Shown here: piece by piece, positions 1-28,426 of the stretch
Layout: the number at the start of each line of letters is the position of its first letter
How positions within the stretch are numbered: the first letter of the stretch is position 1
Source of the DNA: Alphaproteobacteria bacterium
Lineage (GTDB): Bacteria > Pseudomonadota > Alphaproteobacteria > Rickettsiales > VGDC01
Reading direction: 5' to 3'
Assembly: GCA_016869895.1 (NCBI GenBank)
Contig: VGDC01000001.1
Span: 1-31,845, forward strand
Length of the DNA stretch: 31,845 nucleotides
The notes under the pieces: model-generated
The model's database searches: none
Seen by the model: only the letters and a program-made list of their open reading frames with translations
What the model was told of the DNA's origin: nothing
Made by a program: the position numbers and the translations under genes

Positions 1-387
1 GAGTTTTACCGTGTCGCGGATGAGGTCAAGCACCGCGTCCTGCGTCATCTTGAACTGGTATTTCAGATGGATATCGCTGGTGGACATGAAGGTGTGAATG
101 CGGCCTTGGCGCGCGGGCTTGATGGCCTCTGCGGCGCGTTCGATGTCGATGGCTTTTGCGCGGGCGAGCGAGCAGACGACGGCGCGTTTGGTCACTTCGG
201 CGATGGCTTTCACGGCCTCGAAATCACCTTGGGATGCGATGGCGAAACCCGCTTCGATGACGTCCACGCCCATGTTGTCGAGCACTTCCGCGACGAGGAG
301 TTTCTCCTCGCGGGTCATGGACATACCGGGGGACTGTTCACCATCACGCAGGGTGGTATCAAAAATGACAATGCGGTTCTTGCTCAT
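1..387 (-). CDS. leuA: 2-isopropylmalate synthase, N-terminal part (runs off window edge; absent from ORF track)
   Basis: Manual translation from ATG at 387: [21 protein letters not shown]...GVDVIEAGF...SLARA...[12 protein letters not shown], carrying the DTTLRDGEQ and HTF motifs of LeuA. Confidence 0.95.
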
Positions 388-491
388 ACATCCATCTCGT
401 TTTGCTCGTTGTTTTCGCCTGCCTTTTTGGCATTTTTTATTGCGGGTAGCTTAGGGTTTTACGCTTAAAAAGCAAGTGAATTAGCAGCCCG

Positions 492-573
492 AAACAAGGA
501 AGGGCGGTCAGAAGACCGCCCTTGCCGAGTAGTAGGATGGTGATTGTGGGCGTTGGTGCGGTCAGCAGACCGC
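492..573 (-). promoter_or_regulatory. Candidate leucine-responsive attenuator in the leuA leader
   Basis: ATC CTA CTA CTC codons (538..527) lie just before a 10-bp hairpin AAGGGCGGTC-TTCT-GACCGCCCTT (523..500) with a CCTTGTTT tail. A second hairpin GCGGTC-TGCT-GACCGC lies at 573..558. No canonical start codon was found in the Leu-codon frame. Confidence 0.5.
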
Positions 574-642
574 GTGAGCCATCAGCCCGCGAAGCGGCGC
601 GCCATTGAGAAATCAGGAGATTTCGCAGGGCGCAATCAAAGC

Positions 643-2260
<1,618 letters not shown>

Positions 2261-25860: not shown

Positions 25861-25927
25861 GAATTCACCCCTTCCGGGTTTGCTGTTATCGCCTCAAGAT
25901 GGATGAAACATTCATGATGAGGTCGTT

Positions 25928-26773
25928 ATGCACTCAATCCATCCATCGGATTATCAAAAAGCCTTCGTGCGTTATCTGCGCAAAGGAATTCCCCTTGATG
26001 TCGCATTAAAGGCGCCATCAAGCGAACACACTACAACTCACTACATCTGGCGCACGTCTGGTGATGATAAGGTTAGGAATGCCCACGCGGTCAACAACGG
26101 CAAACTATTTCGTTGGGATGTGCGTCCATCCACCGGACATCCGGGCGAGGATTATAATTGTCGTTGCAAAGCGGAGCCGTTCATTCCAGGTGAGAGTGAG
26201 TATGCATATCAAATACTATTGCAGCCAGAGCGTGATGTGGAAAATAAATGGACAGCAGCCAAATTCATTAGACATTACTACTTTGGTGGCGGAAGAACAC
26301 TTGAGTTACAAGAAACGGGGCATCTCCTAGCGATTATCAATTACTATTTATACTATATAAAACGTCAGGGAGCGGACAGTAGAAGCCGGGTGAATTCTGA
26401 AATAATTACTGCTGCTCGTAAGCGACAGAGTGGGGGTTTCACCCATAATTTTTATAATTCATACACCGAGTTTGGTGATTATTTTTGGCCGTTTGGTGGT
26501 GGAAAGGTAAGCGGCTTATTCACAGGAGACGTTCATCATAAAAACGGCATGCTAAGTATCCAAGGAACTATTAATTACAAGTATGCAGATATTTTCACAG
26601 ATCCGGTTAATTTGAGAGAAGATTTTTACCATGGCACATCAGACCCAGCCGAAGCATCTATATTGGCTCTAATGGTAACTGATGCGCTTGGTGTGCACTT
26701 TGATGTAGTCGGGCGGTGGGAGACGCAATTCTCAGCGGAAGTAAGATTAGATGCTGAAAATAGCATGTACTAA
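25928..26773 (+). CDS. MuF (phage head morphogenesis) domain protein with a C-terminal extension; candidate polymorphic toxin
   Basis: YIWRTSGDDKVR..H..NNGK.F.W......HPGEDYNCRC.AEP MuF signature; GAGGT RBS; sampled lines have 23/60 and 24/60 G+C. Confidence 0.82.
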   Translation: MHSIHPSDYQKAFVRYLRKGIPLDVALKAPSSEHTTTHYIWRTSGDDKVRNAHAVNNGKLFRWDVRPSTGHPGEDYNCRCKAEPFIPGESEYAYQILLQPERDVENKWTAAKFIRHYYFGGGRTLELQETGHLLAIINYYLYYIKRQGADSRSRVNSEIITAARKRQSGGFTHNFYNSYTEFGDYFWPFGGGKVSGLFTGDVHHKNGMLSIQGTINYKYADIFTDPVNLREDFYHGTSDPAEASILALMVTDALGVHFDVVGRWETQFSAEVRLDAENSMY

Positions 26774-27243
26774 GAAGCTAGTTCTAAAATCAGTGTGCTG
26801 ACCATCATGCAAATGGGGTAAATGACGAATATGAGTGTGCCGATAGCTATCAGAAAGTTCGCGAACCATCCCTTCTTGAAGTGCCCACCCATGGTTTTGA
26901 TGGTGCGTCTGTGCCGCATTTGCCAAGCAAATTCACACAATCCCGCATATCCCGCTGCGAAGACCCAGCCAATCAGCGGGTAGAAGAATAAGCCTAAGCC
27001 TTTCGGCGGCTTTCCGCATTCGGGATGTTGCTGGAGAGAGCCGTCAGCGAATTGGCTTTGGCAAATTTCATAATCGTGCCAACCTAGATGATAGTGTGAG
27101 TAAATCATCGCATTCAGCGCCGCATACCCTAAAAGAATCGCGCCGATGAGCCGCCACGTGCGGAACTTCGCACTATCTTCTGGCTTTGCGGCGAAGACCA
27201 GCACGGGAATCAGCATCACGAATAACCAGAAAAACGGGTTCAT
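26770..27243 (-). CDS. 157-aa four-TM membrane protein; candidate immunity protein
   Basis: Start MNPFFW, coupled by ATGA overlap to the upstream GT29 gene; four hydrophobic segments; Cys pair in the loop between TM2 and TM3; stop overlaps the MuF gene stop. Confidence 0.72.
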   Translation of the reverse strand: MNPFFWLFVMLIPVLVFAAKPEDSAKFRTWRLIGAILLGYAALNAMIYSHYHLGWHDYEICQSQFADGSLQQHPECGKPPKGLGLFFYPLIGWVFAAGYAGLCEFAWQMRHRRTIKTMGGHFKKGWFANFLIAIGTLIFVIYPICMMVSTLILELAS

Positions 27244-28301
27244 TCCCCTGCTTCCCCCATCAGCTTCCTGAAGTAAGCCGCTTCTTTGTGCCAATCGTGG
27301 GGGCTGCTGATGGTGAATTTCTCGAAATAGTGTGATTTCGCGCCGGCTTGCAGATGGTCGGTGAAGCTGAAACCGTAGCAATCGGGTTTCGCATCCGGCC
27401 CGATGATGTCACACACAGCACGGATGGCGAGCAGCCCTGTGCTGGGCGGTGAGCCAAGCTCTTCAAACAAGGCGTCATAGGTCTTCTGGAAGGTCAATGT
27501 GCCCGTGCCTTTGCGCTGCTGCGCTTCGATGGCCGACCAATCGGCGGGATGGGCGAAAAGGTGGGAGACGCCATAGCCAATGAAGGCGAATCTTTCATCT
27601 GGTCGCTCCTGTGTGCGGCGGTTGCGCCCACGGAACCAGACGGTGGCTTTCGTGCCGTAATCCGCTGCGAAACGCGAATCGGCGGCGAAATTGTTGAAGC
27701 GGATGACGACGGCGTGGCGGTCTATCTCCGCGCCTCTGGCCTTGCCGACTTCGCAGGGGGAATTGCCGACCAGCGCGATATTGAAGCGGTTAGCGAGGAG
27801 GTATTCGCGGAAGCGGTCGTGATCCAGCGCGAAGCGGATGCGCTGGCGGTTGGTGGGGTCGAAACAGGCATATCTGCCTTCGATGTCTTTCGCGCCGGGG
27901 AAGGTGATGGCGGCGGCATCGCGCAGGCCGAGGTCATAGAGCGCGGCTTTCAGGCGAAGGCGTTTGGCGGGCGCGCGCACGTTGCCCATGCGGGGTAGAT
28001 AGGATGCGGCGGTGGGGGCATCCAGTCGGCCAGAATCGAAGAGGTCGAGCAGGTAATCCGCCAGATAATCCCCGTTATGGGGGGCGAGTTCAGCCGCCTT
28101 CAGGAAGAGCGGCGCGGCGGCGAGGGAATGCCCGCCCGCATAACGATGCGCCTTGGCGGATGTGTGGAAATCCGCCGCAGAACGAGGCGGGAAACGGCGA
28201 TAACCCGCCCGCACAAGGCCAAGAACCACAGAAAGCGCACGGTTGCACTCTAACCGGCTCTGGATGCGCGCTATCTGATATAATCCCTGAAGCAAAATCA
28301 T
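27240..28301 (-). CDS. GT29-family (eukaryote-type) sialyltransferase-like protein (start 28301 or 28316)
   Basis: Sialylmotif L-like [28 protein letters not shown]...DYGTKAT; S-like PSTGLLAI...CYGFSF; III/VS-like HYFE...HDWHKE. Confidence 0.85.
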
Positions 28302-28426
28302 GGCTCTGGATAACACGGATTGTCAGCTTTTTCCACGGAAAATGCTTTGGATTCCTTGACGTTGCAGGAATTATGCTTATGATGCTGCCATTGCCTGCGG
28401 TGGGCGGTTATTTCAAGGTTTTTTGT

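Follow-up and report, generated by a model that had tools for sequence, protein, structure and literature searches.

A four-helix membrane protein gene convergent with a short-MuF toxin gene is a candidate immunity gene in an alphaproteobacterial genome

Introduction

The gene considered here lies in a 31,845-nucleotide stretch of DNA (the window; assembly GCA_016869895.1, contig VGDC01000001.1, positions 1 to 31,845) from an Alphaproteobacteria bacterium of the order Rickettsiales. It occupies positions 26770 to 27243 of the reverse strand and encodes a protein of 157 amino acids (aa) with four transmembrane (TM) helices, and we have coined the label TM4 for the gene and its family. Its stop codon (TAG, 26772-26770) overlaps that of a convergent short-MuF polymorphic toxin gene (25928-26773, forward strand; TAA, 26771-26773) by 4 nt (26770-26773), an overlap already seen in a preliminary description of this DNA. 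As there is no intergenic space between the two genes, their transcripts must overlap. Judging from gene linkage, we propose that TM4 is probably the cognate inner-membrane immunity gene of the adjacent polymorphic toxin. The preliminary description had suggested immunity to a toxin of the colicin M (ColM) type, and had further claimed that TM4 is wired into the transcript of a neighboring GT29-like glycosyltransferase gene. The substrate of the ColM catalytic domain is lipid II, which it cleaves on the periplasmic side of the inner membrane.

Results

Linkage of TM4 and Toxin Genes

We sampled 400 genomes of the same order: the C-terminal domain of the toxin was present in 24 and TM4 in 23, and 16 genomes contained both (Fisher p ~1e-17, with related genomes not being independent); the co-occurrence anticipated in the preliminary description was indeed found. 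According to a script run over the fetched loci, at least 15 TM4/toxin pairs were directly convergent, abutting or overlapping, while two loci had an extra gene between TM4 and toxin and one pair was split across contig ends. Three more pairs were located on unrelated metagenome contigs (L001, L098, and L101). Convergent abutting loci number ~20, from many families of the alphaproteobacterial order and from unrelated metagenomes. Overlap or abutment of the two 3' ends was seen in every pair examined. All five representatives from a global search had a convergent downstream gene, and in L098 and L101 a homologous MuF protein was recognized. The one close TM4 homologue, on a metagenome contig, adjoins a paralogue that overlaps the gene for a 281-aa MuF protein tail to tail; this MuF protein is 37% identical to that of the window, and lon, rather than a glycan gene, is the neighbor at that locus. 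The two partners were correlated in their divergence (Mantel r 0.50, p 0.0003, 15 pairs), which indicates that TM4 and toxin move as a unit. Relatives of both proteins came from exhaustive profile and genome searches, word-indexed searches being almost blind (a single TM4 homologue with 44% identity, and zero matches for the toxin C-terminal domain).

At one further locus (G071:C1:47730-51079; L046, L060, and L066), 3-4 tandem ColM-like MuF toxins, some truncated or with stops, were arranged around one TM4.

Topology and Family of the TM4 Protein

TM4 is a real gene with homologues at E values down to 1e-37, and an exhaustive profile search returned 180 representative clusters at E ≤ 1e-3 and 108 at E ≤ 1e-10. 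Its open frame extends upstream of the ATG at 27243 as far as a TTG at 27381; the TTG was rejected and the start was set at 27243, because in the alignment the homologues begin at the position of this methionine. An AlphaFold2 (AF2) model built with 65 homologues had a mean predicted local distance difference test score (pLDDT) of 95.7 and contained four long hydrophobic helices (residues 3-17, 25-62, 83-110, and 126-156) beside a short amphipathic helix (112-121). With 4 Lys/Arg in loop 1 and 6 in loop 3, these two loops are expected on the cytoplasmic side, and loop 2 (residues 51-84), which is net acidic and contains Cys61 and Cys76, would be periplasmic. These charges predict an N-out/C-out topology with the Cys loop in the periplasm, and the four TM segments and two-Cys loop noticed in the preliminary description were borne out by the AF2 model and the loop charges.

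The family shares a strongly conserved motif in the third TM helix (TM3; GW.PA..Y.G.WE..WR) and usually the Cys pair as well, with Cys76 conserved in at least 90% of the 65 homologues. Zero matches to TM4 were obtained in Pfam and NCBIfam, the fold searches against the PDB (Foldseek) and AlphaFold database (AFDB) clusters gave no convincing match (best AFDB E 0.15), and an ESM Atlas feature search returned nothing usable. TM4 is an undescribed family without a Pfam or fold match.

Orphan TM4 Genes, Toxin Arrays, and Other Partners

Polymorphic toxin systems are defined by replaceable tips on a constant N-terminus and by retained orphan immunity genes (PMC3482391, PMC5576092), and both traits were found around TM4. 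The 3' ends of orphan TM4 genes in L070, L071, L074, and L076 abut, in convergent frame, what remains of the final ~30 toxin codons; these remnants are individually weak (E 6e-4 to 0.04), and all of them are at the same place. A DUF4258-like tip takes the place of the ColM-like domain on this MuF core in L079 and L083, where a small acidic open reading frame (ORF) and then a convergent TM4 come next. A Logan contig (L100:1-2971) contains three tandem cassettes of MuF core and Colicin_E5 (tRNase), each with an acidic ORF of 83-89 aa, after which an internally deleted ColM-like MuF remnant (585-806, reverse strand) abuts an orphan TM4 (107-574, forward strand). This is a textbook polymorphic-toxin array on the ~50-aa MuF core. 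Tandem TM4 paralogues were found in L001 and L079.

Most toxin copies carry a convergent TM4. In seven toxin loci (L025, L030, L035, L043, L055, L056, and L061), a co-directional partner that overlaps the toxin stop codon is found instead. These partners form a second candidate immunity family (members at L030:5374-5862, L025:5677-6228, and L061:693-1286, among others), which has one N-terminal TM helix and a periplasmic domain with two conserved Cys and the motif YYxICxYGxxCS, and no Pfam match was found for it. Further toxin copies are followed by single-TM ORFs of 57-78 aa.

The linkage data show a partnership and not its sign, and TM4 might also be an accessory factor of the toxin, acting in holin-like release, export, or activation and not as an antidote. 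The toxin has no signal peptide and would need a way out of its producer, and the strongly conserved TM3 motif suggests a role beyond the binding of a fast-evolving toxin surface. However, orphan TM4 genes persist after toxin decay or replacement and TM4 occurs as tandem paralogues, as expected of immunity genes and unlike a release factor, and some copies of the toxin are paired with other membrane proteins in the absence of TM4. The orphan genes together with the swapped toxin tips argue for immunity over a release factor, and we consider the accessory role unlikely.

MuF Core and ColM-Like Domain of the Toxin

The toxin (281 aa) consists of a conserved N-terminal segment of ~30 aa, a MuF core (aa 33-82; 26024-26173, forward strand), and a C-terminal domain (aa ~102-281; 26231-26770, forward strand) with the motif HYYFGGG. 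The core matches PF04233 with 43.7 bits (cut-off 29.6) at profile positions 61-111 of 112 only, and the C-terminal extension beyond MuF amounts to ~195 aa. All toxin homologues (25/25) match PF04233, and the window toxin is the sole PF04233 match in its genome.

A structure model of the toxin based on 25 sequences (pLDDT 82.5) was exhaustively aligned with VIA-align 2 against 48,161 PDB clusters. Pectocin M1 (8jc1, Z 7.2) ranked first and Syringacin M (4fzl, Z 6.3) second, followed by the C-terminal domain of a Bacteroides type VI secretion system effector (9jdi, Z 5.7), by PaeM in fourth place (4g76, Z 5.7), and by Colicin M itself in seventh (3da4, Z 4.8). Five of the top seven matches are in, or possibly in, the ColM family, and the ColM-family matches all cover residues ~102-281 of the model. 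Despite the modest Z scores, the case for a ColM fold can be made because the entire ColM family ranks together at the top, unlike chance. An ESM Atlas search likewise returned a Colicin M cluster (TM 0.54, toxin residues 104-273). With the ColM reference from plasmid pAPEC-O1-ColBM (NC_009837) and its family alignment, hhalign gave a weak collinear match of the toxin domain over 119 columns (E 0.0021, probability 13%), in which HYYxGxG was paired with HYLWGNG, the hairpin GxFxGxV...I.G with GAYLGNITL...I, and D225 with the essential D226 of ColM; against the single ColM sequence, hhalign was uninformative (probability 1%). Foldseek with the toxin model found zero matches in the PDB, and a search of 400 genomes of the phylum with PF14859 (Colicin_M) also gave zero matches. 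A pore-forming toxin was rejected, as there is no hydrophobic helical hairpin and the fold matches ColM and not a pore-forming domain.

The C-terminal domain is ColM-like in its modeled fold, but its sequence does not place it in the ColM family. The ColM-type toxin of the preliminary description therefore holds at the level of fold (structure ranks, ESM Atlas match, and weak hhalign match) and fails at that of sequence, where PF14859 finds nothing and the catalytic motif is not kept. The same fold occurs on other carriers (AFDB A0A2T4V8H5 and A0A0A2ZVC4), namely an extracellular contractile injection system (eCIS)-core fusion, i.e., injection system cargo, and another carrier of 403 aa, and it occurs alone as well, like toxin modules. 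The module is thus common to several delivery systems.

A 414-aa variant in L051 and L074 (G070:C14:20150-22836) retains ~160 residues from the start of the ColM-like domain and ends in a longer Ala/Gly-rich tail with a hydrophobic segment; an orphan-like TM4 and a toxin 3' remnant lie 1.6 kb downstream.

Discussion

Several observations weigh against TM4 being the immunity gene of a ColM-like toxin. PF14859 finds nothing in the bacterium's own genome at E ≤ 10, a profile of the toxin domain recovered no ColM chain from the PDB sequences, and Z scores of 4.8-7.2 are within the range that VIA-align 2 calls common. The residues of the ColM motif, D226-x-Y228-D229-x5-H235-R236, are essential in ColM (PMC8469651), and this DxYDx5HR catalytic motif is not kept in the window toxin, where only D226 among D226, Y228, D229, H235, and R236 has an equivalent (D225). 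The toxin family has D221 and D225 as invariants (DxFxDP) and no conserved Tyr, Asp, His, and Arg counterparts of those in ColM. Since Y228, D229, H235, and R236 are without a conserved counterpart, the target of the toxin is possibly other than lipid II, and the substrate of its C-terminal domain may differ from that of ColM.

Further points concern TM4 itself. Canonical polymorphic-toxin immunity genes are co-directional with the toxin, unlike TM4, which is never so. The best-conserved part of TM4 is a motif on the intramembrane or cytoplasmic side and not the periplasmic loop. In the toxin tree, the partner types are interleaved and not clade-specific, which weakens strict specificity, yet resembles ColM; the partner mix of the toxin family matches the known split of ColM immunity types. 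Finally, contigs from two RNA-type libraries appear to represent toxin-sense RNA, antisense across the whole TM4 gene, and none of these contigs spans the junction of GT29 and TM4.

Immunity to ColM toxins by membrane-anchored Cmi or multi-TM PmiA, as stated in the preliminary description, is documented: the known types are either polytopic, as in PmiA (4 TM) and BmiA (3 TM), or periplasmic with a single anchor and two Cys, as in Cmi, PmiB, and BmiB (PMC5277000, PMC5821083). TM4 (157 aa) resembles PmiA and BmiA of Pseudomonas and Burkholderia (~137 aa) in its small size, and it resembles PmiA in its four predicted TM helices and periplasm-exposed loops and in its occurrence in mobile islets at varied genomic sites with orphan copies and toxin remnants. 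A position beside a toxin with a ColM-type domain may be a further resemblance, the partner of TM4 being ColM-like by fold only and failing PF14859. The resemblance is one of layout and setting. In contrast, PmiA has a cytoplasmic C-terminus and a first helix that may be cleaved off as a signal (PMC5277000) whereas TM4 is predicted to be N-out/C-out, and PmiAs, which have a semi-conserved periplasmic motif containing Asp, are barely conserved whereas the TM4 family has a strong TM3 motif and the Cys pair. The partner of TM4 also differs, being without the ColM catalytic motif and placed on a MuF core rather than in a receptor-binding bacteriocin.

In the orientation of its genes, the cassette is similar to cma/cmi of the pColBM plasmids, which are convergent and 49 nt apart in NC_009837 (pAPEC-O1-ColBM); a promoter of its own on the opposite strand drives cmi, whose expression is independent of the toxin (PMC8469651). 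Cmi exerts its immunity on the periplasmic side of the inner membrane, as TM4 would, and the toxin domain fold is in common (Z 4.8 to 3da4), but Cmi is anchored by one TM segment and has a YebF-type domain in the periplasm, whereas TM4 spans the membrane with four helices and matches no Pfam domain. ColM, in turn, differs from the window toxin in its DxYDx5HR motif and its TonB/FhuA import domain, and its profile PF14859 misses the window toxin. The layout of Cmi and PmiB is matched not by TM4 but by the second partner family, with its single TM helix and periplasmic two-Cys domain. Immunity proteins of pore-forming colicins (3-4 TM) are also small, polytopic inner-membrane proteins encoded convergent to the toxin, and a 4-TM architecture is typical of them (PMC5821083); however, the window toxin lacks the hydrophobic helical hairpin of pore-forming colicins and has the ColM fold.

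The toxin shares with the MuF polymorphic toxins of temperate phages (Zhang et al., 2012, PMC3482391; Jamet et al., 2017, PMC5576092) an N-terminal MuF domain, at least 100 further aa on its C-terminal side, exchangeable tips, and an adjacent small immunity-like gene. It differs from them in keeping only the last half of the MuF domain, in having no prophage, portal, or terminase nearby, and in its convergent and membrane-embedded partner TM4, as opposed to a small downstream cytoplasmic immunity protein. No report of a ColM-like tip on MuF toxins was found in PMC3482391 or PMC5576092.

Considering these comparisons, we have formed a likely model of the cassette. The toxin would be a minimal MuF polymorphic toxin, in which a ~50-aa MuF core of the phage-head type carries a ~180-aa C-terminal domain of ColM fold. 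TM4 would reside in the inner membrane with a disulfide-capable loop in the periplasm and would stop arriving toxin there, at or within the membrane, just as ColM-type bacteriocins are countered by PmiA, BmiA, and Cmi. If so, an uncharacterized and well-conserved family (~180 clusters, with a confident 3D model) would join the short list of proteins that neutralize ColM-type toxins, and ColM-like domains would be extended to MuF-tagged polymorphic toxins of uncultured freshwater and wastewater Alphaproteobacteria. The strictly conserved, overlapping tail-to-tail architecture could also be used for finding further toxin-immunity pairs.

Possible Delivery by Phage-Like Heads

The toxin gene sits between neuA-HAD and GT29, outside any head or packaging module in the window. 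The only portal gene and the only HK97-type capsid gene of the same genome are together on another contig (G000:C65:1903-5007), with a spacing as in the head module of elements resembling gene transfer agents (GTAs). In two relatives (L031:3979-7402 and L083:977-3443), short-MuF cassettes stand between gp6-like connector or head-completion genes and the tail-completion gene gp17, in GTA-like or phage clusters. These observations would fit packaging into GTA-like or phage heads. Particles of the RcGTA type have been reported to release their contents into the periplasm of the recipient. We therefore put forward, as a speculative and on the whole doubtful extension, that minimal MuF-core proteins are cargo of GTA-like or phage heads, with TM4 as the matching membrane immunity and the 3' overlap as a means of antisense control. 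If this were true, a head-packaged ColM-like enzyme would arrive where its target lies, and GTAs would be weapons besides DNA carriers. The connector-module link, together with a genome in which the toxin is the only MuF protein, offers a handle on whether GTA-like particles deliver protein toxins.

The same connector modules would also agree with a non-toxic MuF protein that is part of, or ejected from, the head of a phage or GTA, with TM4 as a membrane protein of the superinfection-exclusion type that blocks particle entry, and the loss of the ColM catalytic motif would be compatible with this as well. Against it, the same MuF core bears bona fide toxin domains (Colicin_E5 and DUF4258-like) with small immunity-like ORFs, the C-terminal domain is also found on an eCIS-core carrier and alone, and most pairs are far from any phage genes. 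A non-toxic head protein thus appears improbable to us.

Genomic Setting and Expression

The lower G+C content of TM4 remarked on in the preliminary description was confirmed over the whole gene: TM4 has 50.0% and the MuF gene 44.1%, as compared with 60.6% for GT29, 64.1% for neuA-HAD, and 58.3% for the whole window, so that the toxin and TM4 cassette (44-50%) stands out from the flanking glycan genes (60-64%). The two genes may be regarded as a low-G+C, horizontally mobile cassette of fixed tail-to-tail orientation, which would have landed between two convergent host glycan operons, so that each cassette gene continues a host operon. On the toxin side, the gene is co-directional with the upstream host operon and separated from the neuA-HAD stop by a 67-nt spacer (25861-25927, forward strand). 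On the other side, TM4 follows the co-directional GT29-like glycosyltransferase gene (27240-28316, reverse strand; PF00777, E 3.7e-10), a host gene outside the cassette, and the ATGA overlap described earlier (27240-27243, reverse strand) is present, formed by the GT29-like TGA (27242-27240) and the TM4 ATG (27243-27241). A simple scan for sigma-70-like sites found none in the 450 nt upstream of TM4 and none in the 67-nt gap before the toxin, which suggests that each cassette gene may ride on the adjoining host operon. TM4 would probably be expressed by read-through and coupling from GT29, with its start on the GT29 stop. A hairpin at the GT29/TM4 junction, which had been flagged as terminator-like, was not significant (z -1.39).

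Public runs place the window DNA in a lake-water metagenome. Two RNA-type libraries (coded "organism A") contain 100%-identical contigs that extend from 26630 or 26669 to 27260; a template-switch-oligo sequence is attached at the 26630 and 26669 ends, and the 27260 end coincides with a genomic CCCCCAT, a possible priming site for this oligo. It is from these ends that we infer the toxin sense of the RNA. Such RNA across the whole TM4 gene, the overlap of 3' ends in every case examined, and the behavior of the cassette as a mobile low-G+C islet would also suit an intracellular toxin-antitoxin or addiction module, which stabilizes the cassette under convergent antisense regulation and takes no part in interbacterial competition. 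This seems quite unlikely, given that the MuF core, replaceable tips, and orphan immunity genes characterize polymorphic toxins that are secreted or packaged (PMC3482391, PMC5576092), and that a cytoplasmic toxin would need no membrane antidote with a periplasmic Cys loop.

The claimed wiring of TM4 into the GT29 transcript is putative; the ATGA overlap is real in the sequence but the GT29 neighbor is unique to this locus. According to the preliminary description, the immunity reading would be refuted by homologues that track GT29 or glycan loci rather than the toxin and give no protection; we found no GT29 gene near TM4 homologues in ~25 homologous loci, where they go with the toxin instead, and 400 genomes of the order contained one further GT29 homologue, in G030, where TM4 and the toxin domain are both absent. 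That TM4 belongs to the glycan locus of the host (acting with the GT29-like transferase as a small membrane subunit, as an acceptor, or as a modifier), with the toxin adjacent by chance, would draw on the ATGA overlap and on the lack of a promoter-like site in the 450 nt upstream, but in view of these loci and of the G+C content of TM4 (50% vs 60-64% in the glycan genes) it is highly improbable and already close to refuted, and TM4 was rejected as a glycan-locus gene. The gene upstream of TM4 differs in every locus: in 8 of ~23, a co-directional gene (gatB-like, eda, and others) ends within 50 nt (-4 to 48 nt) of TM4, and in the remaining loci the upstream gene is divergent or distant. The position of TM4 tucked behind a host gene is recurrent and not obligatory, and GT29 is incidental. 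For TM4 as an immunity gene, the coupling to GT29 would be an accident of where the cassette inserted at this locus, though one that may well drive its expression.

One of the same RNA libraries also contained a 92%-identical GT29 homologue at high depth, which departs from the window at 27252.

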